A stretch of 64,000 nt of DNA, taken from contig CAURUU010000003.1 of assembly GCA_963528595.1 (NCBI GenBank), positions 11,042 through 75,041 on the forward strand, written 5' to 3'. The notes beneath the pieces were generated by a model, which saw only the letters and a list, made by a program, of their open reading frames with translations, had not been told where the DNA came from and searched no databases. This DNA is from an uncultured Candidatus Saccharibacteria bacterium (GTDB taxonomy: Bacteria > Patescibacteriota > Saccharimonadia > Saccharimonadales > Saccharimonadaceae). Of this stretch, positions 2,064 to 54,531 are shown piece by piece (the first letter of the stretch is position 1; the number at the start of each line of letters is the position of its first letter). Position numbers and translations under genes: made by a program.

Positions 2064-3581
2064 CTATCGATGCCGAAACAGTGATGAAACGCCGCCGGTC
2101 AGTTGCTGCAAGATGCCGCCGCTACGCGACAACTGCAGACGCAGCTTGTCTTTAGCGTGAGGCGTTATAATCAGCTCGCGCCAATCCGGCTTCGGGTGGG
2201 CGGACTTATTGGTTAAGACTTCAATGGTGTCGCCGTGCCGCAAGTGATAGGTAAACGGCTTCATGATGCCATTGATCTTGAAACCGCTAGCGTGCGCCGC
2301 GATGTCGGAGTGAATGCGGTAAGCATAATCCAGTGGAAAAGCACCGCGCGGCAAATCATAGATATCACCTTTTGGAGAATAAACGAAAATTCGGTCAGAG
2401 AATAATTTCATGCGGAACTTATCAGAGTCAAATCGTTTGCCCTCGCCAGCCAGCGCCGCTGCTTCCTGAAGGTCGCGAATCCACGACAGGTCTGCCGGCA
2501 TAGCGCCTATACGACCCTTTTTGTACGCGTCGGTTAATTTCTGCTCATTGTAGTGGAAGCTGGCCGCCAAACCACGCTCAGCGTATTCGTGCATCTCTTT
2601 GGTACGAATTTGAAATTCAACAATTTGCCCACTCGGCGTTTGCACGGTGGTGTGTAGACTTTGGTAACCGTTTGGCTTGGGGTTGGCGACATAATCTTTG
2701 ATCCGCTCGTACATCGGCTGATACATATCGTGCAGAATCCCTAGAACCAAATATCCTGTCGACAAATCATCAACAATCACTCGCAGGGCGATCAAATCAT
2801 AAATCTTATCGATATCGCCAACCTTATCAAGTTTTTTGAACAGGCTGTAGACGCTTTTGACGCGGCCGTCCATCTGGAAAACCAGCTTTTCTTCCTTTAG
2901 TCGCGCCTCGACTTCGCGGCGAACACGATCCAGCTTTCGCTGCGATTTTTTCAAGCGACTATCCATCAAACTTTTGGTGCGGTGAAAATCTTTCGGCATC
3001 AAATATTTGAAGCTCAATTCTTCCAGCTGCACACGCACGCGTCCCATGTTCAACCGGTCCGCCAGCGGTGCAAATACCTCGATCGTCTCGCGAGCAATTT
3101 TCTTCTGCTTCTCTGGCGACATAAATTGCAACGTCCGCATATTATGCAAGCGATCCGCCAGTTTGATGATAATCACCCGCACGTCTTCACCGACTGCGAT
3201 CATCAGCTTGGTCAAATTATCCTTGGTGTGCGGCAAATAGCTGTCCAGGCTACGCATGCCGGCGCGCGCCTGCGAAACCTTGGTCACACCATCCACCAAA
3301 AACGCCACATCTCGTCCAAATAAACTCTCCAACTCATCCAGCGTCGCGTCGGTGTCCTCGACCGTGTCATGCAGCACACCCGCCACCACCGTGTCGATGT
3401 CCATGCCCCACTCAATCAAAATCTCGGCCACCGCCAGTGGGTGATTGATATACGGCTCGCCGCTTTTGCGTTTTTGTCCAGCATGCTTTTCGGTCGCATA
3501 GTCAATCGCGCTTGCCAAAACCAGCACCGGCACCTCATCATACTTTTGCCCAGCTGTGGCGAGTAGCTCTTCACGCGTCAT
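2064..3581 (-). CDS. relA: short RelA/SpoT-homologue (p)ppGpp synthetase/hydrolase (HD + synthetase + TGS, no ACT/RRM)
   Basis: Motifs seen: HD motif HDTVEDT, synthetase core NGYQSLHTTV...EFQIRT, and a TGS-like region FVYSPKGDIYDLPRGAFPLDYAYRIH. The protein is only 505 aa. Confidence 0.9.
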   Translation of the reverse strand: MTREELLATAGQKYDEVPVLVLASAIDYATEKHAGQKRKSGEPYINHPLAVAEILIEWGMDIDTVVAGVLHDTVEDTDATLDELESLFGRDVAFLVDGVTKVSQARAGMRSLDSYLPHTKDNLTKLMIAVGEDVRVIIIKLADRLHNMRTLQFMSPEKQKKIARETIEVFAPLADRLNMGRVRVQLEELSFKYLMPKDFHRTKSLMDSRLKKSQRKLDRVRREVEARLKEEKLVFQMDGRVKSVYSLFKKLDKVGDIDKIYDLIALRVIVDDLSTGYLVLGILHDMYQPMYERIKDYVANPKPNGYQSLHTTVQTPSGQIVEFQIRTKEMHEYAERGLAASFHYNEQKLTDAYKKGRIGAMPADLSWIRDLQEAAALAGEGKRFDSDKFRMKLFSDRIFVYSPKGDIYDLPRGAFPLDYAYRIHSDIAAHASGFKINGIMKPFTYHLRHGDTIEVLTNKSAHPKPDWRELIITPHAKDKLRLQLSRSGGILQQLTGGVSSLFRHR

Positions 3582-12371: not shown

Positions 12372-13568
12372 TTATTCACCCAGAAATGATTGTTTGACCT
12401 GCTGGTAGGCGTCGCGGAATGGCACGCCTTTTTCCACCAATTCGTTAATCTTGGCGACGGTGTAAAGTTCATCGGTCATCGCCTCAGCCAATCGGTCAGT
12501 GTTAGCCTCCAGTTCACTGACACAGAGTGTCAGAACTTCCAGAGTGTCGAGTGCCGACGTGAAGGCATCCATGGTGATCTTTTTGGTCAACTGCAAGTCG
12601 CGGTGATAGCCACTGCCGGCACCTGTCGAAATAGCTTGGAGTTGCAAAGCGTAGTTTGGATAAGCGTGGGCGGTGGCGCGCATGATCTCAAAGACGTCGT
12701 AGTTACGTTTGTGCGGCATGATGGACGATCCAGTGGTCATGGTAACAGGCAGCTTGAAATAGTTAAACTCCTGAGAAGTAAACAGCAACATGTCTTCGGC
12801 AAATTTGCCAGCAAAGACCATGATTGGGTTGAGTGCTTGCACGGCAATCAGCTCAAACACGCCGCGCGACAAGCCGCAGTACATGGGATTTTCCTGTACT
12901 TTAGCGAAGCCTAACTCACTGGTCGTCATCTGGCGGTCAAGTGGCAGAGTAACGCCAAAGCCAGCAGCGCTACCCAGCGGGTTTTGATCGATGGCGGTGA
13001 TGCTGTGTGCCACCAATTGCTGGAGGTCATGAAACGCATCGTGATATGAGCCAAGCCACATACTGACCGTGGTTGGCATGGCTTTTTGGGTGTGGGTGTA
13101 GCCAGGCATCTCGGTCTGGCCAATGACGGCAATTTTGCCAGCATAGGCCTGAGCGACTGCTTCCAGCTTTTTGGCTACTGCCTCAAGCTCCGTTTTGATA
13201 AATAGTCGCATCATCACCAAGGCTTGGTCATTGCGGCTTCGACCAGTATGAACCTTTTTGCCAATTGGTCCGAGTTTTTCTGTCAGATATAGCTCAATAG
13301 CGGTGTGGCCATCTTCGTGCTCGCTGGTGAGCGTGAAGGCACCAGTTTTCCACTCGTTCAGCAGCTCGTCCAAGGCGGCTGCCAATTGTTGATATTCGTC
13401 GCTGGTCAGCACGCCAATTTTTTCTAGCATGTGAGCATGCGCTTTGGTCGCGGTAATGTCGTGACCGAGTAAGTGCTGGTCCAATACCTGATCGTCACCA
13501 ACGGTGTATGCCTCGACTAATGGATGAAGTGAGCCAGTTGCGGTTGATTGCCATAGTTTACTTGCCAT
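12372..13568 (-). CDS. argH: argininosuccinate lyase (short form, 398 aa)
   Basis: TGRSRNDQ and GSSIMPHKRN signatures. It overlaps the argG stop by 11 nt. Confidence 0.9.
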   Translation of the reverse strand: MASKLWQSTATGSLHPLVEAYTVGDDQVLDQHLLGHDITATKAHAHMLEKIGVLTSDEYQQLAAALDELLNEWKTGAFTLTSEHEDGHTAIELYLTEKLGPIGKKVHTGRSRNDQALVMMRLFIKTELEAVAKKLEAVAQAYAGKIAVIGQTEMPGYTHTQKAMPTTVSMWLGSYHDAFHDLQQLVAHSITAIDQNPLGSAAGFGVTLPLDRQMTTSELGFAKVQENPMYCGLSRGVFELIAVQALNPIMVFAGKFAEDMLLFTSQEFNYFKLPVTMTTGSSIMPHKRNYDVFEIMRATAHAYPNYALQLQAISTGAGSGYHRDLQLTKKITMDAFTSALDTLEVLTLCVSELEANTDRLAEAMTDELYTVAKINELVEKGVPFRDAYQQVKQSFLGE

Positions 13569-14820
13569 ATGAGTATGCTCCTTCAGCTGTTCGCTGACTT
13601 AGTGAATATAATTCAATGAATCCGGCGGACGAATTCTGGTTGAATGCGTCGTTGGAATCAAATGTTGCAAGATTGATATCAAACAACGAATGTGGTGAGT
13701 CCACGCTGACGACGGTGATGGTACCCTTGTATAGGCGGACCGTCACTGTGCCGGTGACTTTTTGGTTCTGGTCGTCGATGTAGGCATTGATGTGATGGAT
13801 GGCTGGCTCGTACCACTGTGCCGCATAGGTCAGATATGCCCATTTTTTGTCCATTTCGGCTTTTAGTTCATTTTCAACGCGGGTGGACACCAATTGCTCG
13901 AGCTTTTGATGAGCGGTAATCAAGATGGCAGCGCCAGGGTTTTCGTAGACGCCACGTACCTTCAGCCCGACCAGTCGATCTTCGATGAGGGTCGATACAC
14001 CCACGCCGTGCTTGCGGCCGAGTTGGTTGCAGTGCTGGATGAGTGCTTGGAGTGAAAAGTGGCGGTTATCAACCGCGACAGGTACACCTTTGATAAATTC
14101 AATGGTAATGTCCTCGGCTTCGTCTGGCGTGTATTTGATGGTCGAGCACCAATTGAGAATGGCGTGGTAATTTGGCTTGAGCGATGGTGATTCAATTTCG
14201 CCGCCTTCGCTGGTGATACCCCACATGTTTTCATCGGTTGAGTAGGGTGATTCCTGGGTGTGCGGCACGGGGATATGGTGCTTCTTGGCGTAGGCCAGCT
14301 CTTCCTCTCGACCCATACTCCACTCACGTACCGGTGCCAGGATCTTGAGTTTAGGGTTGAGTGTAGTGATGTAGGTTTCGAAGCGAACTTGGTCGTTGCC
14401 TTTGCCAGTAGCACCGTGTGCAATGACGGTGCAGTTGTACTTTTCGGCATATTCGACGGCCAATTGCGAGATGATGATGCGCCCGAGTGGCGTGCAGAGG
14501 GCGTAGCCGCCTTGATAATCAGCGTTGGCTTTGATGGCTAGCGACAGCAGCTCATCGGCGAAGCGGTCGCGGGCGTCAACCGTAATGGTTTCTATGGCGC
14601 CGAGCATTTTGGCCTTTTCGGCGATGGCATCGAGATCATCAACCGTCTGGCCAATGTTGACTGTTAGGGTGATGACCTTGCAGTTATATTTTTCTTGTAA
14701 CCACTTGAGCATGACGGATGTGTCGAGGCCTCCGGAGTAGAGCAAGAGGCACGTATCGAACTCACCGTTCACGGCTTCGTGACTGGCAACCTTGGTGTAG
14801 TGAGGTGTGTCGTTATTCAT
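13558..14820 (-). CDS. argG: argininosuccinate synthase
   Basis: YSGGLDTS ATP-binding motif, 420 aa, AAGGA SD. Confidence 0.95.
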   Translation of the reverse strand: MNNDTPHYTKVASHEAVNGEFDTCLLLYSGGLDTSVMLKWLQEKYNCKVITLTVNIGQTVDDLDAIAEKAKMLGAIETITVDARDRFADELLSLAIKANADYQGGYALCTPLGRIIISQLAVEYAEKYNCTVIAHGATGKGNDQVRFETYITTLNPKLKILAPVREWSMGREEELAYAKKHHIPVPHTQESPYSTDENMWGITSEGGEIESPSLKPNYHAILNWCSTIKYTPDEAEDITIEFIKGVPVAVDNRHFSLQALIQHCNQLGRKHGVGVSTLIEDRLVGLKVRGVYENPGAAILITAHQKLEQLVSTRVENELKAEMDKKWAYLTYAAQWYEPAIHHINAYIDDQNQKVTGTVTVRLYKGTITVVSVDSPHSLFDINLATFDSNDAFNQNSSAGFIELYSLSQRTAEGAYSYGK

Positions 14821-14842
14821 ATATTTCCTTTCTATACTAATT

Positions 14843-14871
14843 AAAAAGAGCCGCTCAGGTGAGGGCTCTTT
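14843..14871 (-). terminator. intrinsic terminator inside the argG leader (attenuator)
   Basis: Minus strand reads AAAGAGCCCTCA-CC-TGAGCGGCTCTTT followed by TT. The stem is 12 bp with one bulged C, and the U tract has 5 residues. It lies about 20 nt before the argG SD. Confidence 0.7.
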
Positions 14872-14898
14872 CGTTGATTTATAATACTATACGACTAA

Positions 14899-14955
14899 TT
14901 AGCCCTCTGAGTCAGAGCGGCGACGACGAACAACGATGTTGTGTCGATATGTCAT
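14899..14955 (-). CDS. candidate Arg-rich leader peptide MTYRHNIVVRRRRSDSEG
   Basis: ATG ACA TAT CGA CAC AAC ATC GTT GTT CGT CGT CGC CGC TCT GAC TCA GAG GGC TAA. TATGGT lies 6 nt upstream, and TTGAAA lies 16 nt further upstream. Confidence 0.5.
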   Translation of the reverse strand: MTYRHNIVVRRRRSDSEG

Positions 14956-15033
14956 ATTGCAACCATACCATACTATTGGTGATTTTCAAAATATTTTTAT
15001 ATATAAATTGCGATGCGTTACAATAGTAATAAT

Positions 15034-17010
15034 ATGAGTGCCTTTAATCTCGTCTCCAAATACCAGCCGACCGGCGACCAGCCGACGGCGATTGCTCAGT
15101 TGATGGCGGGGCTGGAGCGGGGCGAACGTGAGCAGACGTTGCTGGGTGTGACGGGGTCGGGCAAGACGTTTACTATGGCAAATATCATCGCTCGAGCCAA
15201 TGTGCCGACGCTGGTGCTGGCGCATAACAAGACCTTGGCGGCGCAGCTGTTTTCTGAGTTTAAGGAGTTTTTTCCGGATAACGAGGTGCATTATTTCGTC
15301 AGCTATTTTGATTATTATCAGCCAGAAGCCTACATTGCGTCGAGCGATACCTATATTGAGAAAGATTCGAAAATCAATGATGAAATCGATCGGCTGCGGC
15401 ATGCGGCGACCTCAGCATTGTTAACGCGGCGCGACGTGATCATTGTGGCTAGTGTATCCTGTATCTATGGCATTGGTTCGCCAGAAACGTACGCTGATAT
15501 GGCGATTCAATTGACGGTCGGCGAGCGGCGAGTGCAGGACAAGTTTATTCGCCTGCTGACTGATATTCAATATAAACGCAACGACGTTGATTTTGCACGC
15601 GGGACTTTCAGGGTGCGTGGTGACGTGGTGGATATTTTCCCGGCTGGGCAGGACACGGCGGTGCGAGTGGAATTTTTTGGCGATGAAGTTGAGAGACTCA
15701 CACGAATTGATCCGCTAACGGGCGAGATTTTGGAGCAGCCAGCTAGCCTGACGATTTTCCCCTCCAGCCACTATTCGACGCCGCGTGAACGAATTGAAAA
15801 AGCCATCGTCGGCATCGAGAAAGAGTTTGACGAGCGGCTGAAATGGTTTGAATCGCATGACAAATTGCTGGAGGCGCAGCGCCTAGCTCAGCGCACTAAA
15901 TATGACCTAGAAATGCTTAAGGAAACAGGCTTTGTCAAAGGTATCGAGAATTATTCGCGCTATCTGACGGACCGCGAGCCGGGCGAGCAACCAGCGACCT
16001 TAATTGATTATTTTCCAGACGATTGGCTGCTGCTGGTCGATGAATCGCATATGACGCTGCCGCAAGTGCGCGGTATGTATAACGGCGACCGGGCGCGCAA
16101 GGAAGTGTTGGTGGAGCACGGGTTTCGTTTGCCGAGTGCGTTGGATAACCGCCCGCTGAGATTTGATGAATTTGATCAGCATATTCACCAGGCGATTTAT
16201 GTGTCGGCTACGCCGGGTGACTATGAAATTGCTCATTCACCAAAGCCGGCTGAGCAGTTGATTCGGCCGACGGGGCTGCTTGATCCGCCGATTGAGGTGC
16301 GGCCGACCGAAGGGCAGGTTGATGATTTGATGGAGGAAATTCGCCAGACCATCGCCAACGGCCACCGCGTGCTGGTAACCACCTTGACCAAGCGCATGGC
16401 TGAGGATCTGAGTGCCTACCTGACCGATAATGGTGTGAAAACGGCGTATCTACACAGTGAAATTGACACATTAGAGCGCGGCGATATTCTCAAAGATTTG
16501 CGACTGGGAACGTATGACGTGTTAGTTGGTATCAATTTGCTACGTGAGGGGCTGGACCTACCGGAAGTCAGTCTGGTGGCGATTATGGATGCTGATAAAG
16601 AAGGTTTCCTCCGCTCTGAACAGGCACTGATCCAGACGATTGGCCGGGCGGCGCGGCATGTCGATGGACGAGTGTTGATGTATGGTGATAATGTAACTGA
16701 CAGTATGCGGCGAGCGATTGACGAGACGAATCGTCGGCGTGCAATTCAGCAGCAATATAATGAAGAGCACGGCATCACGCCGCAAACCATCCAGAAGAAG
16801 ATTGACGATGGCCTGCGCTCTATCATTCCGCAAAAAGAATCGGACAAAAAGCCAAAGCTTGATTTGAAGAAGATTCCGAAAGACGAATATCCAACGCTGA
16901 TCAAGGAATTGACTGGTCAAATGGAACTGCATAGCGCCAATCTGGAGTTCGAAAAAGCGGCGGAGCTGCGTGATTTGATTGCAGAAATTAAGCAAACAAT
17001 GGTACACTAA
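15034..17010 (+). CDS. uvrB: excinuclease ABC subunit B
   Basis: The N-terminus [17 protein letters not shown] matches UvrB N-termini. Walker A GVTGSGKT, a DESH box and a C-terminal UVR motif are present. TACAAT at 15019-15024 precedes ATG 15034, so ATG 15013 is likely outside the transcript. Confidence 0.95.
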
Positions 17011-33743: not shown

Positions 33744-36269
33744 TCACAGCGTTGTTTGCAAAGCAGCGAGCACGCCCGCCTTGTCTCGCTCAATCAGCTC
33801 AACTCGTGCTGCGATTTCCGTGATACCTAGTTCAATCGTTCTGGTCAGGGCTGGGATACTCAGCATCGGCTCGAAGAAGTGGCGAAAGTCAACCAGTTCG
33901 TCGCTCGTTGTCAGCCCGATGGCAGCGTAGCGGATGAAATCATCGTAGCTTTTGTCGCCAGCAAAGGTTGTTTCAACCCACGTCCAATTGTCCTTCAGCC
34001 AATCCCAAGTGAGCTGGCGGCTTTCGTGGGTGCGGATGAGATAGACAAACCAACGGCTGGCATCTTGTGGACGAATGACGTCAGGGCGCTTGATATTTGT
34101 AAGGATTTGTTGCGCAGTTTTAGGGTTTTTGGTGGCAGTAAGTCCCAGGGTAATGTCAGCCTGTAGATCGTTTGATGGCGTCTGCTGGTAAGTTTGGAAC
34201 AGGCTGTCAATCATCTCTGGTGTCTCAAAGTGCCTTATAGTAGCGCTGATGATCAGCGAACGGATTTCTGTTGGTAATTTGTCAAGAGGCTGACTGTCAA
34301 ACCGCCGCTTGGCTTCCGCCAGCACTGCCTGGTCTTCGCTATAGATCATCAAGCCCAGAGCGGTGACGCGCCGTTCGCGGTCGTCATCAGATTCTCCAGG
34401 CTTCTCGTCCCAACCCAGTTCGTTGAACGTAGCACGAGCAAACTCGCCAGAAATTTGCTTCAAGCGGGCTTTCCCGTCTTCATCATCGTCAACAAATTTG
34501 CGTAGCTCCGCCAGTGCACCGGCTGCCATGTCAAAAACCTTCTCATTGGTTTCATGCTTCAGTGACAGCGCCAGCGGCAGGAGTGAAGCTGAATTCTCAC
34601 ATCCAGCCCTAGCTAGTAGCGTGGCGTCCTGGAGTAGGCAGATTTTGTCCAGAGTCGGCAGAGCGTGAATGTGACTGAGCAGATGCTCACGAGTAGCGGT
34701 GTTGTATTTGGTCACAAAATGCCCGTTCAGTCCGCAGTTCAGCTGCAGTGGTTTTTCAATGGTGAATGTTTTCTCACGTTCAGTTAAAATTTCGTCATCA
34801 AGTGGTTGGTTGGTGAACAATGGAATCGGCCACAAGGCGTCGGATGGCTGATGATCGCCAATGAAGAAGCGTTCTTGGCGTAGGGTGGCGGTCGGTTGAT
34901 TATCAGAGTTGTTCTGCTCGACCTGTACAATCGGCAAACCTGGCTGGGAAATCCAGGTGTTCATCAAATCAACAACTGGCTGGCCGCTGGCAGTTTCTAG
35001 CTCCCGCCACAAATCATCACCAACAGTGTTTTGGTAAGCAAATTTTTCAAAATATGACTTGAGTCCTGCCCGAAATGCTTCCTCGCCAATCAGCCGCTGT
35101 ACCATTACTAGCAGGCGTCCGCCTTTGGCATAGACGATTGCTGGATCAAACAGCGTACTAATCTCGTCTGGGTGATTGACATCGGCCTGCACTGGCTGCA
35201 CGCCGTCCAAGCTGTCGCGCCGCAGTGCCGCAGTGACTTCGCTCGTTGCAAAATCCTCCCACATCCGCCACTCGGGATGCAGTGCGTCGACTGCCACATA
35301 CTCCATCATATTAGCGAAACTTTCATTCAGCCACAGGTCATTCCACCACTGCATGGTCACCAGATTACCAAACCACTGGTGGCTGAGCTCGTGGGCGATG
35401 ACGGTGGCGATGAAGCGCTTGGATGACTCTGGCGTTAATTTTGGATCAGCCAGCAGGCAACTTTCGCGGTAGGTGATGAGTCCCCAGTTTTCCATGGCAC
35501 CCGACGAGAAATCTGGCAACGCCACATGGTCGGACTTTGGCAGCGGATATGGTACGCCAAAATATTCATCATAAAAATCAATGGAGCCAGTGGCGATGTC
35601 CAGCGCAAAATCCAGGGTCTCCTCACTCTGGGCTGGTGTGGCCCAAACATTTACCTCGACGCCAGAAGTGGTATGAGCGGTCTTTTTGTGTAGCTCACCG
35701 ACGACAAAGGCAAGGAGGTAGCTGCTCATACGCGGTGTGGTGGCAAAAGTGGTTGTCAGCGTGCCATCATGCTCGGATGATTCAATGACAGGCATATTGC
35801 CAAGGACGGTCAATTCTGGAGCGGTTACGAGTGTGACGTCGTACGTCGCCTTGGCGGCTGGTTCGTCAACACACGGGAACACTTCGCGGGCGTGGTGCGA
35901 TTCAAATTGGGTGGCAAACAGCTGCTTTTTCACGCCATTGTGGGTGAAATAACATGGATACAGCCCGTGCATAGCGTCGGTGATGGTGCCGGAAAAGTCG
36001 ATGCGAACGGTATGCTGGCCACTTGATAACTCTGGGCGCGACAAACGTAATTCATCAAATTCACCATGAGAGAACTCAGCTGGCTGGTCGTCGATCGACG
36101 CCGTATGGATAGTCAAATCTTTGGCGTGTAGCGAAATCGACTCGCCAGTCGACTCGCCGGAAATGATCACTGTGCCAGAAAACGATTTTTCCTCGGCGCG
36201 GGTCAGGTCGAGGGTTAGGTTATAGTGATGGGGTGTAAAGGTATCGAGTAAATGCTTGAGTTTTGTCAT
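33744..36269 (-). CDS. pepN: aminopeptidase N (M1 family)
   Basis: GAMENWG exopeptidase motif and HELSHQWFGNLVT...WLNESFA zinc site. TGATATAAT ends 6 nt before the ATG. Confidence 0.95.
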   Translation of the reverse strand: MTKLKHLLDTFTPHHYNLTLDLTRAEEKSFSGTVIISGESTGESISLHAKDLTIHTASIDDQPAEFSHGEFDELRLSRPELSSGQHTVRIDFSGTITDAMHGLYPCYFTHNGVKKQLFATQFESHHAREVFPCVDEPAAKATYDVTLVTAPELTVLGNMPVIESSEHDGTLTTTFATTPRMSSYLLAFVVGELHKKTAHTTSGVEVNVWATPAQSEETLDFALDIATGSIDFYDEYFGVPYPLPKSDHVALPDFSSGAMENWGLITYRESCLLADPKLTPESSKRFIATVIAHELSHQWFGNLVTMQWWNDLWLNESFANMMEYVAVDALHPEWRMWEDFATSEVTAALRRDSLDGVQPVQADVNHPDEISTLFDPAIVYAKGGRLLVMVQRLIGEEAFRAGLKSYFEKFAYQNTVGDDLWRELETASGQPVVDLMNTWISQPGLPIVQVEQNNSDNQPTATLRQERFFIGDHQPSDALWPIPLFTNQPLDDEILTEREKTFTIEKPLQLNCGLNGHFVTKYNTATREHLLSHIHALPTLDKICLLQDATLLARAGCENSASLLPLALSLKHETNEKVFDMAAGALAELRKFVDDDEDGKARLKQISGEFARATFNELGWDEKPGESDDDRERRVTALGLMIYSEDQAVLAEAKRRFDSQPLDKLPTEIRSLIISATIRHFETPEMIDSLFQTYQQTPSNDLQADITLGLTATKNPKTAQQILTNIKRPDVIRPQDASRWFVYLIRTHESRQLTWDWLKDNWTWVETTFAGDKSYDDFIRYAAIGLTTSDELVDFRHFFEPMLSIPALTRTIELGITEIAARVELIERDKAGVLAALQTTL

Positions 36270-36344
36270 GGTTTCATTATATCATTTGCGGACTGTGAGA
36301 TTGGCTGGTTGGAAAAGGCTTACGGTATTCGATATACTAGAGGT

Positions 36345-37031
36345 ATGAGAGGGACAATATTACAGCGCAGGCGCATCATGGCCTTGTTTGTGGTGGTGCT
36401 GTCGGTTTTGGCGGTGTGGTCGTCGCAACTGTCACAACCAAAGCTGGCGCCTGTCCCGGCTGATTTACAGCAACAATATTTCGGCAGCTCGAACGCGCTC
36501 GATGAACTGAACAAATTGGAAGTAAAGGGTCGTGCGCCCAAAACGGGCTATACGCGCAAACAGTTTGGAAACGGCTGGGGCAAAATTGATGGTTGCTCGG
36601 TGCGGGAAGTGATTTTAGCTAGGGACTTGAGTGATGAAAAAGTGGGCGAAGGCTGCAAGGTGCTTTCTGGTGTTTTGCAAGATCCATATACTGGTCAAAC
36701 CATTCATTTTCAGCGCGGTGAAAAAACCAGTTCTAAAGTACAGATCGACCATGTGGTGGCGCTGAGCGACGCCTGGCAAAAGGGCGCGCAGAATTTGTCA
36801 GCGGTTGACAGGGAAAAATTAGCGAATGATCCACTGAACCTACTGGCGTCAGAAGGGCAGGTAAATCAGAACAAGGGTGATAGCGATGCATCGGCTTGGT
36901 TGCCGCCTAACAAGGATTTTCGCTGTCAATATGTCGCGCGGCAAATTGCGGTGAAGAAAAAATACCGCCTGTGGGTTACTGACGCTGAAAAACAAGCTTC
37001 CGCTCATGTTCTGAAAAAATGCAAGGGTTGA
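36345..37031 (+). CDS. secreted or membrane-anchored DUF1524/HNH-like nuclease
   Basis: Signal/TM segment IMALFVVVLSVLAVW, then QIDHVVALSDAW...NQNKGDSDASAWLPPN. TATACT at 36333-36338 lies 6 nt before ATG 36345. Confidence 0.75.
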   Translation: MRGTILQRRRIMALFVVVLSVLAVWSSQLSQPKLAPVPADLQQQYFGSSNALDELNKLEVKGRAPKTGYTRKQFGNGWGKIDGCSVREVILARDLSDEKVGEGCKVLSGVLQDPYTGQTIHFQRGEKTSSKVQIDHVVALSDAWQKGAQNLSAVDREKLANDPLNLLASEGQVNQNKGDSDASAWLPPNKDFRCQYVARQIAVKKKYRLWVTDAEKQASAHVLKKCKG

Positions 37032-54189: not shown

Positions 54190-54264
54190 TGGTGCGGATG
54201 GGGAGAGTCGAACTCCCGTCTCAACCTTGGGAAGGTCACATAATAGCCGTTATACGACACCCGC
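54190..54264 (-). tRNA. tRNA-Gly (anticodon CCC), CCA encoded
   Basis: Folded by hand. Acceptor GCGGGTG/CATCCGC, anticodon loop TTCCCAA, T arm GGGAG-TTCGACT-CTCCC. Confidence 0.9.
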
Positions 54265-54330
54265 GTTCTTAAAAGTATATCACCCTTGCCAGATGGCGAC
54301 AACTTTAGTACAATGAAGTAGCAAGTTTGT

Positions 54331-54406
54331 GGCTCTTTAGCTCAGTTGGTAGAGCAGAGGCCTGAAGAGCCTTGTGTCCCCAGTTCAAGTCTGGGAGGAG
54401 CCACCA
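54331..54406 (+). tRNA. tRNA-Phe (anticodon GAA), CCA encoded
   Basis: GGCTCTTTAGCTCAGTTGGTAGAGC..., anticodon loop CTGAAGA, T arm CCCAG-TTCAAGT-CTGGG. A TTGCCA-17-TACAAT promoter lies upstream. Confidence 0.95.
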
Positions 54407-54455
54407 AATATTGCATTTTATTCGCGGCTTTGTTACAATAAATCGTGAATTACAT

Positions 54456-54531
54456 GCGGGTTTAGCTCAGTTGTTAGAGCGCTTCCTTGCCATGGAAGAG
54501 GCCAGGAGTTAGAGTCTCCTTACCCGCACCA
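54456..54531 (+). tRNA. tRNA-Gly (anticodon GCC), CCA encoded, with an unusual D-loop/T-loop
   Basis: Anticodon loop TTGCCAT. The D loop is AGTTGTTA (U19) and the T loop is TTAGAGT (A56). Confidence 0.85.

Follow-up and report, generated by a model that had tools for sequence, protein, structure and literature searches.

The classical enterobacterial attenuators (trpL, hisL, pheL, leuL, thrL, ilvL; Rfam Trp/His/Phe/Leu/Thr leader families) combine a short ORF carrying a run of cognate codons with the alternative helices 1:2, 2:3 and 3:4. Their first structural gene is directly preceded by an intrinsic terminator, and the stop codon of the ORF is sited in a way that a terminating ribosome masks region 2. 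These traits recur in the leader of argG-argH analysed here, which is located in a window of 64 kb (the whole stretch of DNA that was analysed) from a genome of the oral Candidatus Saccharibacteria (TM7), Nanosynbacter-type. The argGH leader differs from the enterobacterial attenuators in its amino acid, arginine, with no matching Rfam leader family, in its ORF, which lacks a Shine-Dalgarno (SD) sequence and is apparently leaderless, in its host, a CPR/Patescibacteria epibiont, and in its target, which is a two-gene salvage step and not a full pathway.

A leaderless short ORF that forms the first cistron and contains a run of cognate codons is also found in the mycobacterial polycysteine attenuators, where stalling is reported to relieve an inhibitory RNA structure and to induce the downstream biosynthetic genes (Canestrari et al., bioRxiv 10.1101/834739). 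As described there, however, this structure sequesters the downstream ribosome-binding site, i.e. control is translational, whereas the argGH leader contains a hairpin with a U-tract, an intrinsic terminator that would give transcriptional control of the trp type; amino acid and phylum differ as well. In the Salmonella speF leader two consecutive Arg codons of orf34 let the progress of the ribosome report arginine and alter the folding of the downstream mRNA, as is proposed for the argGH leader, but orf34 has an SD sequence and a product of 34 aa, it acts via Rho-dependent termination, unfolding of the ribosome-binding site and RNase G decay instead of an intrinsic terminator/anti-terminator pair, and its target is ornithine decarboxylase, i.e. 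polyamine synthesis and not arginine synthesis (PMC6386406). Similarly, rbfL from Staphylococcus aureus is an Arg-codon leader peptide that senses arginine limitation via ribosome pausing, yet with the opposite sign, as occlusion of the ribosome-binding site represses the downstream gene at low arginine; moreover, its codons are the rare AGA/AGG, it has no terminator and its target is a biofilm regulator (PMC13009471). Finally, T-box leaders (RF00230) also sense tRNA charging and control terminator read-through before amino-acid genes, but, unlike what is proposed for the argGH leader, they bind uncharged tRNA directly and do not need translation. The openly accessible literature searched yielded no earlier account of arg genes controlled by an Arg-run attenuator, nor of a leader peptide in CPR. 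Our computational analysis supports the view that the argGH leader may be regarded as an Arg-specific, leaderless CPR version of this known type of regulator.

Organization of the locus

The leader shares its strand with argG and then argH, and is adjoined upstream by the divergent uvrB. As uvrB is divergent, no gene upstream on the leader strand needs to be terminated, a point already made in a preliminary description of the locus, whose coordinates and sequences turned out to be exact for every element on re-checking. The elements are as follows:

14984..14989, minus strand: -35 hexamer TTGAAA of the leader/argGH promoter (sequence check, promoter scan)
14962..14970, minus strand: extended -10 box, TG-G-TATGGT, with TATGGT at 14967-14962 (promoter scan)
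14899..14955, minus strand: leader ORF, 18 codons plus stop, product MTYRHNIVVRRRRSDSEG* (sequence check; conservation)
14917..14928, minus strand: Arg-codon run CGU CGU CGC CGC, four codons, putatively regulatory (sequence check)
14913..14921, minus strand: region 1, GCCGCUCUG, spanning Arg codons 3-4 and the Ser codon; partner is region 2 (MFE fold)
14901..14909, minus strand: region 2, CAGAGGGCU, spanning the end of the leader ORF as far as base 1 of its stop codon (folding)
14861..14872, minus strand: region 3, GAAAGAGCCCUC, the 5' arm of the terminator (folding)
14843..14856, minus strand: region 4, the 3' arm of the terminator, GAGCGGCUC, in which one C is bulged, followed by the U-tract (folding)
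14843-14871, minus strand: intrinsic terminator, AAAGAGCCCTCACCTGAGCGGCTCTTTTT (sequence check)
14826..14831, minus strand: SD sequence of argG, AAAGGA (sequence check)
13558..14820, minus strand: argG, argininosuccinate synthase, 420 aa (NCBIfam NF001770, 484 bits)
12372..13568, minus strand: argH, argininosuccinate lyase, 398 aa (NCBIfam TIGR00838, 292 bits)

The two promoter boxes are spaced by 16 nt. Region 2 has two alternative partners, region 1 and region 3, and the core of the anti-terminator is formed by GAGGGCU (14907-14901, region 2) and AGCCCUC (14867-14861, region 3). Owing to the bulged C in its 3' arm the terminator is an imperfect inverted repeat, as was implicit in the sequence given previously; its hairpin ends in a U5 tail, the ATG of argG is located 22 nt past the terminator end, and argH starts within the end of argG, with an overlap of 11 nt. 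No second ORF of 8-40 aa that contains a homopolymer run of at least four residues and is followed by a terminator exists on either strand of the window. CGU and CGC together make up 57% of the Arg codons in the window genes.

Promoter and start of the leader ORF

The promoter pair and the short ORF are exactly where the preliminary description had placed them, and this part of the description can be refined by a feature absent from it, i.e. the leader appears to be leaderless. In the window the -10 box ends 6 nt before the ATG of the leader ORF, and several bona fide genes of the window exhibit the same arrangement of -10 box and start codon without an SD sequence. A sigma-70-type promoter with a TTGACA-like -35 box, a spacing of 16-18 nt and a distance of 6-9 nt from the end of the -10 box to the start codon is present in 13/13 lineages, all of which lack an SD sequence before the mini-ORF. 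As the -10 box is positioned 6-9 nt from the start codon and the SD sequence is missing, we infer that the mRNA from which the leader peptide would be made is probably leaderless, with the transcription start site at or beside 14955.

Among the close relatives two different promoter alleles can be found. An ARG box in the promoter was considered and rejected, the two alleles sharing no palindrome on inspection by eye. Within the leader there is a weak promoter-like site (CTGACT, 18 nt, TATAGT) at 14915-14886, i.e. upstream of the terminator.

Conservation of the leader in close relatives

Close relatives were aligned with MAFFT (alignment A2, relatives with ArgG at least 79% identical). The preliminary description had raised the possibility that related genomes keep the hairpin and lose the small ORF or its Arg codons; 57 of 57 close relatives retain an intact leader ORF, and the Arg run reads RRRR in 55 of them, RRCR in one and RRR in one. 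One variant carries an in-frame indel of 6 nt in the ORF, and Arg codons within the run show synonymous changes, i.e. the frame and the Arg run are kept and the remaining peptide drifts. Of the columns in the stems and the Arg run, 5 of 47 are variable as compared to 35 of the 87 other columns (p = 3e-4).

At the RNA level, the 1:2 helix is 95% paired in A2 and the terminator 97%, the latter with two compensatory pairs, and GAGGGCU is invariant. Because the 7-bp core of the anti-terminator never varies among the close relatives, they offer no covariation evidence for this helix, neither for nor against it. Hence, the alignment proposed earlier yields the expected conservation of ORF, frame and Arg run as well as covariation in the terminator, but none in the anti-terminator core. 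In L050 and L163 GAGGGCU is located past the stop codon and does not encode Glu-Gly, which argues that it is conserved as RNA and not as peptide.

Occurrence in distant lineages

Under a strict automated definition the device is present in 11/15 more distant CPR-type lineages (ArgG 65-86% identical) and in 0/92 control argG loci (Fisher p = 4.4e-12, a test that overstates independence as the lineages are phylogenetically related). The control loci originate from a metagenome ArgG-alignment scan and, among the matches listed, are mostly from unrelated phyla with ArgG of 40-50% identity. When any small ORF with RRR and any start codon within 350 nt upstream was accepted, 8/93 controls matched; since all eight matches were long, GC-rich or located within upstream genes, the strict definition was adopted. 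The peptide patterns of the metagenome scan were very generic, and L079 was the sole useful locus among the matches listed.

The ORF persists at ArgG identities of 86, 81, 80, 79, 74, 71, 68, 67 and 65%. The Arg run comprises 3-4 codons in 12/13 device-bearing lineages and nearly all of its codons, in all lineages, are CGU, CGC or CGA, with one CGG; the peptide flanking the run is unrelated between distant lineages. What the distant lineages have in common is the promoter-adjacent start codon, the in-frame Arg run, the stop codon beside region 2 and the logic of the helices. The Arg-run mini-ORF and the terminator have differing upstream neighbours, i.e. uvrB, an acetyltransferase gene, FtsK, ADI and pilus genes. 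L164 (73% ArgG identity) retains just a degenerate form, in which the hairpin is weak (-3.1 kcal/mol) and the Arg run is down to two consecutive codons. The argG upstream regions of L172 and L173 gave neither the device nor an Rfam match at E <= 0.01.

Alternative helices and ribosome position

The MFE fold of the leader is more stable than those of shuffled sequences (z = -5.1). In this fold helix 1, which was absent from the preliminary description, is built from the Arg codons themselves and pairs with region 2, resulting in a complete 1:2 / 2:3 / 3:4 layout. The 1:2 hairpin has a folding energy of -9.8 kcal/mol, the 2:3 structure of -13.1 kcal/mol (z = -3.6) and the terminator (3:4) alone of -15.9 kcal/mol (z = -4.9). 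The 7-bp anti-terminator GAGGGCT/AGCCCTC, which had been proposed on the basis of complementarity, is corroborated by the energy of the 2:3 fold and by its duplex, which beats shuffles in the window (p = 0.0035).

The divergence of the distant lineages precludes a reliable MAFFT alignment, and a duplex-versus-shuffle test was therefore carried out for each lineage. The 2:3 complementarity exceeds that of shuffles in 13/13 lineages (p <= 0.0125 each), and at least six different 2:3 helix sequences occur across these 13 lineages. The rebuilt helices of anti-terminator and terminator include GCGAAGGCU:AGCCUUCGC, GAGGGUCG:CGACCCUC, GGGUGGUGU:ACACCGCCC and AAGUUGC:GCAACUU, and a compensatory change between lineages converts GAGGGCU:AGCCCUC to GAAGGCU:AGCCUUC.

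Folding with a ribosome mask at defined positions gave the predicted switch. When an Arg codon occupies the A-site, capture of the terminator's 5' arm extends over 6-11 nt (-11 to -20 kcal/mol), and when the stop codon occupies it, this capture drops to 0-1 nt in most lineages. If a footprint of 31 nt, a realistic size for the mask, is used, the 5' arm is still partially captured in the stop-codon state in L002 (4/9), L166 (5/11), L167 (3/6) and L168 (3/5). The suggestion that a stalled ribosome frees region 2 and a ribosome at the stop codon masks it is thus borne out by the folds, less cleanly so in these four. When the nascent RNA is folded at equilibrium and no ribosome is included, 2:3 often beats 1:2, implying that default termination hinges on kinetic, co-transcriptional folding.

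Discussion

The sequence elements of the argGH leader, their conservation and the mutually exclusive helices are all evident in silico. We consider it likely that this leader is a ribosome-mediated transcription attenuator that senses charged tRNA-Arg and controls argG-argH, i.e. the salvage of arginine from citrulline; the trp/his-type attenuation put forward in the preliminary description is in line with the conservation, the rebuilt helices and the ribosome-position folding. For this candidate attenuator we infer from the sequence where transcription would start, that the ORF is probably translated and that read-through would respond to arginine.

In the proposed mechanism transcription would begin at or beside the A of the leader AUG (14955), and a 70S ribosome would initiate on the leaderless 5' end. 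When arginine is ample, the ribosome would pass CGU CGU CGC CGC and reach the UAA, masking region 2, so that regions 3 and 4 could pair to form the terminator and RNA polymerase would stop at the U-tract near 14843, giving a terminated transcript of ~113 nt. When Arg-tRNA is scarce, the ribosome would stall on the Arg run, occlude region 1 and free region 2 to form GAGGGCU:AGCCCUC and a small inner helix with region 3; the terminator would not form, allowing read-through into argG-argH. If no ribosome is present, 1:2 would pair and termination would occur by default. In many related genomes an arginine deiminase is also encoded beside argGH. Salvage should therefore likely be on only when arginine limits translation, which would avoid a futile arginine/citrulline cycle.

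Several other explanations have to be weighed. The element might be a real attenuator that responds to slowing by the nascent poly-Arg peptide or to general translation stress and not to the charging of tRNA-Arg, in which case it would report general translation capacity or fix the level of read-through. Runs of basic residues can slow elongation, and the run in the leader is short (2-4 codons) and made up of the common codons CGU/CGC and not of rare ones; the classical his and phe attenuators, however, use common codons as well. Moreover, the run is always Arg and never Lys, and the regulated genes make arginine. In addition, the unrelated Uhrbacteria-type locus L170 has a T-box-like leader (48.7 bits) with a probable CGC specifier before the same gene, which is consistent with control of argG by tRNA-Arg charging and points to charging as the selected signal, and we regard slowing by the peptide or by general translation stress as improbable. 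That same T-box-like element occupies an equivalent position and could, together with the mutually exclusive helices, which are typical of riboswitches too, be taken to suggest a translation-independent RNA switch, i.e. a riboswitch, a T-box or the target of an RNA-binding regulator that binds a ligand, protein or tRNA, with the ORF being incidental. Yet at the gathering threshold all Rfam matches in the window are tRNAs and 11 related loci give none, the distant lineages lack a conserved aptamer-like sequence core, and half of the ~113-nt leader is ORF. As for the T-box family, whose criterion includes a Stem I specifier loop and the T-box GGUGGUACCGCG, no match was obtained at 14700-15100 of the window even at E <= 10. 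A switch of this kind is thus quite improbable. The sole window match at a relaxed threshold is Phe_leader RF01859 (27.4 bits as compared to a gathering score of 55, E ~0.01); membership in this family was rejected as the match is sub-threshold and largely terminator-driven, and it shows similarity of form.

Likewise, the ribosome on the mini-ORF might gate the ribosome-binding site of argG, rendering attenuation translational. This would match the leaderless design reported for the mycobacterial Cys attenuators (bioRxiv 10.1101/834739), and the full-length fold shows weak pairing between the U-tract and the AGAAAGG region containing the SD sequence. Nevertheless, the SD sequence is located 12-17 nt past the U-tract, where A-U and G-U pairs hold it only marginally, and in most lineages the hairpin is canonical and GC-rich with a U-tract behind it. 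Sequestration of the SD sequence was rejected as main mechanism since the argG SD is not robustly sequestered, and translational gating is, if anything, slightly less probable than a translation-independent switch. Finally, the hairpin might simply terminate or insulate constitutively, or be what is left of a bidirectional terminator, next to a fortuitous ORF, with argG being transcribed from a downstream promoter or governed by an ArgR-type repressor. Repression by ArgR is the textbook mode of arg gene control, and the promoter-like site at 14915-14886 could be seen as an internal promoter. This site, however, is upstream of the terminator, the divergent uvrB leaves nothing on the leader strand to be terminated, and the co-occurrence of ORF, Arg run and terminator in 11/15 lineages and in none of the 92 controls speaks against a fortuitous ORF. 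The two promoter alleles of the close relatives have no conserved operator-like palindrome, a scan of 43 window proteins (of 48 ORFs of at least 150 aa) revealed neither an ArgR nor an ADI-pathway domain, and TM7x is reported to lack argR (PMC12815258). We regard this as the most improbable of the explanations, and ribosome-mediated attenuation in response to tRNA-Arg charging remains our preferred reading.

As to its distribution, we lean slightly towards the view that the leaderless Arg-codon attenuator controls the salvage of arginine from citrulline lineage-wide in Saccharibacteria and also occurs in at least one further CPR lineage, with a T-box equivalent in Uhrbacteria-type genomes. To our knowledge, almost nothing is known about gene regulation in these reduced genomes. 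If our reading is correct, the argGH leader would be the first classical attenuator specific to arginine biosynthesis, so that arginine would join the short list of amino acids under classical attenuation, and it would be the first cis-regulatory sensing element described for ultra-small epibionts. The ribosome itself would then stand in for a repressor in genomes without ArgR, and the attenuator would gate argGH against the arginine deiminase pathway encoded nearby. Arginine has a central place in the lifestyle of oral Saccharibacteria, as their arginine deiminase system provides ATP and influences the interaction with the host bacterium (PMC12815258). A conserved device that reads tRNA-Arg charging would explain how argGH-bearing species choose whether to break arginine down or to regenerate it from citrulline, how such control is achieved without a dedicated transcription factor, and how a futile cycle with arginine deiminase is avoided. 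The leaderless design also poses the question of how transcription and translation are synchronized when a 70S ribosome initiates at a 5' AUG. Being well-defined and only ~113 nt long, the element may serve as an arginine-responsive part for the emerging genetic systems of Patescibacteria.

Architecture of the argGH leader

When the minus strand of the window was read from 14700 to 15200 and each element was re-extracted by coordinate, all elements and positions named in the preliminary description upstream of argG-argH were recovered, and gene calls and profile matches agree with its statement that uvrB is divergent from leader-argGH.

Elements of the argGH leader locus
14989-14984, minus strand: -35 box TTGAAA
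14967-14962, minus strand: -10 box TATGGT, 16 nt after the -35 box, with a TG before it (extended -10)
14955-14899, minus strand: leader ORF of 18 codons, ATG at 14955, TAA at 14901-14899, peptide MTYRHNIVVRRRRSDSEG
14871-14843, minus strand: hairpin and U-tract, AAAGAGCCCTCACCTGAGCGGCTCTTTTT
14820, minus strand: ATG of argG (argininosuccinate synthase, 420 aa, 484 bits), with AAAGGA before it
12372-13568, minus strand: argH (argininosuccinate lyase, 398 aa, 292 bits)

The -10 box and the leader ATG at 14955 are 6 nt apart, and the 3' end of argG and the 5' end of argH overlap over 11 nt. The leader folds much more stably than shuffled sequences (z = -5.1), and across the 64-kb window, both strands included, the leader ORF is the only ORF of 8-40 aa that combines a homopolymer run of at least four residues with a downstream terminator. 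ArgH is short, i.e. its 398 aa match TIGR00838 (455 positions) over profile positions 1-386 and the usual C-terminal region is absent; as ArgH proteins of 395-413 aa are found in most related loci, the short form probably characterises the lineage rather than reflecting a truncation.

Alternative helices and the predicted switch

On the predicted folds, the leader is a complete trp-type layout of leader hairpin (1:2), anti-terminator (2:3) and terminator (3:4). In the minimum free energy (MFE) fold region 1, GCC.GCUCUG (14921-14913), comprises the last two Arg codons and the Ser codon and pairs with region 2, CAGAG.GGC (14909-14902), at the end of the ORF (-9.8 kcal/mol). Thus, as modelled, helix 1 draws on the Arg codons themselves, which refines the preliminary description. 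The 7-bp anti-terminator GAGGGCU:AGCCCUC proposed there holds up; together with an inner helix of 4 bp it comes to -13.1 kcal/mol (z = -3.6), and the terminator reaches -15.9 kcal/mol (z = -4.9). Moreover, region 1 (GCCGCUC, 14913-14921) can pair without a mismatch with region 4 (GAGCGGC, 14848-14856), so that the unoccupied read-through RNA folds as nested 1:4 + 2:3, which is also the MFE fold of the related argG locus L002. This complementarity explains why a bulged C is conserved in the terminator 3' arm, and the 1:4 pairing may stabilise the anti-terminated form.

For each lineage, a nascent transcript reaching as far as the terminator loop was folded with the ribosome placed at varied positions. 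When an Arg codon occupies the A-site, the upstream segment captures most of the terminator 5' arm (-11 to -20 kcal/mol); when the stop codon does, capture is reduced to 0-1 nucleotides and the terminator is the MFE structure in nine lineages; with a 31-nt footprint, partial capture persists at the stop codon in L002, L166, L167 and L168. Folding the two conformers, as had been proposed, therefore yields the predicted switch, with partial capture remaining in these four lineages. In equilibrium folds without a ribosome 2:3 often outcompetes 1:2, so default termination would rely on the order of co-transcriptional folding, as it also does in classical attenuators.

Conservation among close relatives

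An ArgG scan of species-representative genomes assigns the window to oral Candidatus Saccharibacteria/Nanosynbacter; of the 60 loci returned, 58 have 97-99% ArgG identity, L046 85% and L050 79%. As TM7x is reported to lack argG and argR (PMC12815258), argGH is an accessory locus of other species in the group.

The leader ORF is kept in all 57 loci that have upstream sequence. It comes in two lengths, MTYRHNIVVRRRR... and MTYRHNIVIVARRRR..., set apart by an in-frame indel of 6 nt. Residues before the run are substituted (R4Q, H5Q, I7F/M, V8I, A11S), as are loop codons 3' of it (S16P). The run itself is RRRR in 55 loci, RRR in one and RRCR in one (L001, with a Cys codon within the run), and CGU/CGC changes within it are synonymous. 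In the alignment of distinct leader sequences the start codon, most Arg-run positions, GAGGGCT, GCCCTC and GGCT are invariant, and within the 30 closest sequences variation is confined to 5 of 47 columns in stems or the Arg run vs 35 of 87 others (Fisher p = 3e-4). The 1:2 pairs are formed in 95% and the 3:4 pairs in 97%, the latter with two compensatory pairs; the 2:3 core is 100% paired and, as it never varies, uninformative on covariation at this distance. The upstream alignment suggested in the preliminary description thus bears out the ORF, its frame, the Arg run and compensation in 3:4, and is silent on covariation of the 2:3 core among close relatives.

Two promoter/leader alleles are seen in Nanosynbacter among L001-L060, i.e. 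TTGAAAATCACC... with the 18-aa leader and TTGTGAAAAATATGCG..., usually with a 20-aa leader; at least one locus, L014, is an apparent recombinant of the second promoter and the 18-aa leader.

Distant lineages and controls

ArgG homologues of 64-86% identity are abundant in Patescibacteria. The distant set comprised contigs encoding twelve of these and L079 from a metagenome scan. The genes 5' of the leader differ by locus (uvrB, acetyltransferase, hypothetical gene, FtsK, G5-domain gene, arginine deiminase, pilN); the gap before argG holds a short Arg-run ORF followed by a hairpin and U-tract, in L164 in degenerate form.

ArgG identity and leader peptides of distant argG loci
L159, 86%: MTTTHNVIRRRRSLAEG
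L161, 81%: MIISQHNEIRRRRTRTHEG
L163, 80%: MTLTINTNVIRRRSLL
L050, 79%: MTYRISTSVIRRRSLS
L166, 74%: MSTCSSVVSVRRRRNPRCEGLVLS
L164, 73%: MKIIIRNKFRRTLD (weak form)
L167, 71%: MNIVNSGEKERRRPCL
L168, 68%: MNKNVRVDSERRRRLMAGLAEVN
L169, 67%: MNIKSTTSLNRRRRLS
L079, 65%: MKRTSQNLSLRRRNYHSWKLRRF
L171, 65%: MNKLIQTISFRRRSHFRT (Magasanikbacteria per source name)

Only the Arg run is common to these peptides. In L050 and L163 GAGGGCU lies directly 3' of the stop codon and does not encode Glu-Gly, so it is conserved as RNA. The lineages further away form the 2:3 helix from different sequences, namely GCGAAGGCU:AGCCUUCGC, a compensatory change vs the window, GAGGGUCG:CGACCCUC, GGGUGGUGU:ACACCGCCC, the 14-bp helix CUCUUGGAAGUUGC:GCAACUUUCAGGAG or AGAAGU..UUUUGG:CCAAAACUUCU. 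The stretch that begins where the Arg run ends and reaches 12 nt beyond the stop codon is more complementary to the terminator 5' arm than shuffles are in 13 of 13 lineages (each p <=0.0125; eight at the floor of 0.0005). On the 1.24-Mb contig of L169 two tandem terminators, ACCGCC..GGCGGU-U8 and then GACUGC..GCGGUC-U7, lie between leader ORF and argG (L169:2300-2500, plus strand).

Under a strict definition scored automatically at all loci (ATG/GTG ORF of 8-30 aa with at least three consecutive Arg codons, then a hairpin of -6 kcal/mol or better and T4 before argG) the leader is present in 11 of 15 CPR-type lineages, the window excluded, vs 0 of 92 non-CPR argG loci (Fisher p = 4.4e-12, which overstates independence as the lineages are related). 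The differing helix sequences speak against mere inheritance in the absence of selection. Outside the definition fall L164, with RR only and a weak hairpin, and L170 (Uhrbacteria-type genome), in which a T-box-like leader precedes argG (L170:2101-2437, plus strand; 48.7 bits to RF00230 against a gathering score of 93, E = 9.5e-10). Its alignment places CGC, an Arg codon, after the S-turn GAA, suggesting Arg as the specifier. In L172 and L173 no recognisable element, Arg-run ORF or Rfam match was found; their gaps of 260-380 nt (L172:2120-2500 and L173:2240-2500, plus strand; Peregrinibacteria-type and Parcubacteria-type, respectively) contain hairpins and U-tracts, and in L172 no argH follows argG. 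Judged by sequence, conservation of the putative device extends throughout Saccharibacteria and into at least one further CPR lineage; elsewhere a T-box takes its place.

The runs consist almost exclusively of CGU, CGC and CGA, with CGG once. CGU, CGC and CGA are read by the inosine-containing tRNA-Arg(ICG), and CGU and CGC make up 57% of the Arg codons in window genes. As in the his and phe attenuators, common codons are used and sensing would operate through tandem repetition. The window contains a cluster of tRNA-Gly(CCC), tRNA-Phe(GAA) and tRNA-Gly(GCC) genes (54190-54531) and no tRNA-Arg gene.

Probable leaderless start of the leader ORF

No Shine-Dalgarno sequence was found on any leader ORF, and in 13 of 13 lineages the start codon follows the end of a sigma-70-type promoter (e.g. 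TTGACA-17-TATACT or TTGACC-17-TACAAT) at a distance of 6-9 nt. From this position the transcript is predicted to start at the AUG or at most 2-3 nt off, i.e. the leader transcript is probably leaderless, a further refinement of the preliminary description.

At many operon-first genes of the window, likewise, a TAnnnT -10 box ends 6-9 nt 5' of the ATG and a Shine-Dalgarno sequence is absent, with starts at 3581 (minus), 3615 (plus), 15034 (plus), 23399 (plus), 36269 (minus), 56879 (plus) and others. Genes with this layout include relA/spoT, an MFS transporter, uvrB (ATG 15034), dnaE, an M1 peptidase and an amylase-family gene; strong Shine-Dalgarno sequences are found on internal operon genes and argG. 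As the layout recurs at real genes, leaderless initiation is plausible in this Saccharibacterium, and leaderless mRNAs look common in it. For uvrB, the longest-ORF start at 15013 (plus strand) sits 5' of the gene's own -10 box TACAAT (15019-15024), the NCBIfam match to the 665-aa ORF starts only at residue 11, and translation from 15034 gives a canonical-looking N-terminus; ATG 15034 (plus strand) is thus probably the true start. A 78-bp region is common to the divergent uvrB and leader promoters. The window also carries a gene with a GmrSD-C domain (restriction endonuclease-like) at 36252-37031 (plus strand).

Relation to known systems and possible role

The conserved Arg-run ORF, the complementarity above shuffles and the ribosome-position folds support the trp/his-type attenuation originally proposed. 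By its modelled function the leader is a classical leader-peptide transcription attenuator, and we consider it likely that the candidate is a functional ribosome-mediated attenuator responsive to arginine supply. The mechanism would be textbook; what is new is arginine as the amino acid, a design that is probably leaderless, and the group of organisms. To our knowledge, arginine is not included in comparative-genomics attenuator surveys, and essentially no regulatory elements are known from this group. The leader belongs to no Rfam leader family, the best match being Phe_leader (27.4 bits vs a gathering score of 55), and the full-text literature searched, with subscription-only papers outside it, described neither an Arg-run attenuator for arginine biosynthesis nor a CPR leader peptide.

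Related principles are found elsewhere. According to one report, mycobacterial sensory sORFs for cysteine are leaderless, as the Arg leader probably is, but act on the RBS (10.1101/834739). In Salmonella speF an upstream ORF also senses by way of Arg codons, but it acts via Rho, the RBS and RNase G, and its target is polyamine synthesis (PMC6386406). S. aureus rbfL couples Arg-codon sensing to RBS occlusion, with a regulatory sign opposite to that of the Arg leader (PMC13009471).

No ArgR domain was found in the 43 window proteins scanned (of 48 ORFs of at least 150 aa). Several related loci have argGH with a divergent arginine deiminase gene on one side and a convergent argS on the other. Arginine deiminase converts arginine to citrulline, and ArgG/ArgH reverse this at the expense of ATP; expression of argGH only under Arg-tRNA shortage would avoid a futile cycle. 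Such 'arginine island' loci, with a PF02274 deiminase gene and argS for arginyl-tRNA synthetase, are L162, L167, L168 and L171; in the window argGH is flanked instead by uvrB and a LOG/TIGR00730-family gene.
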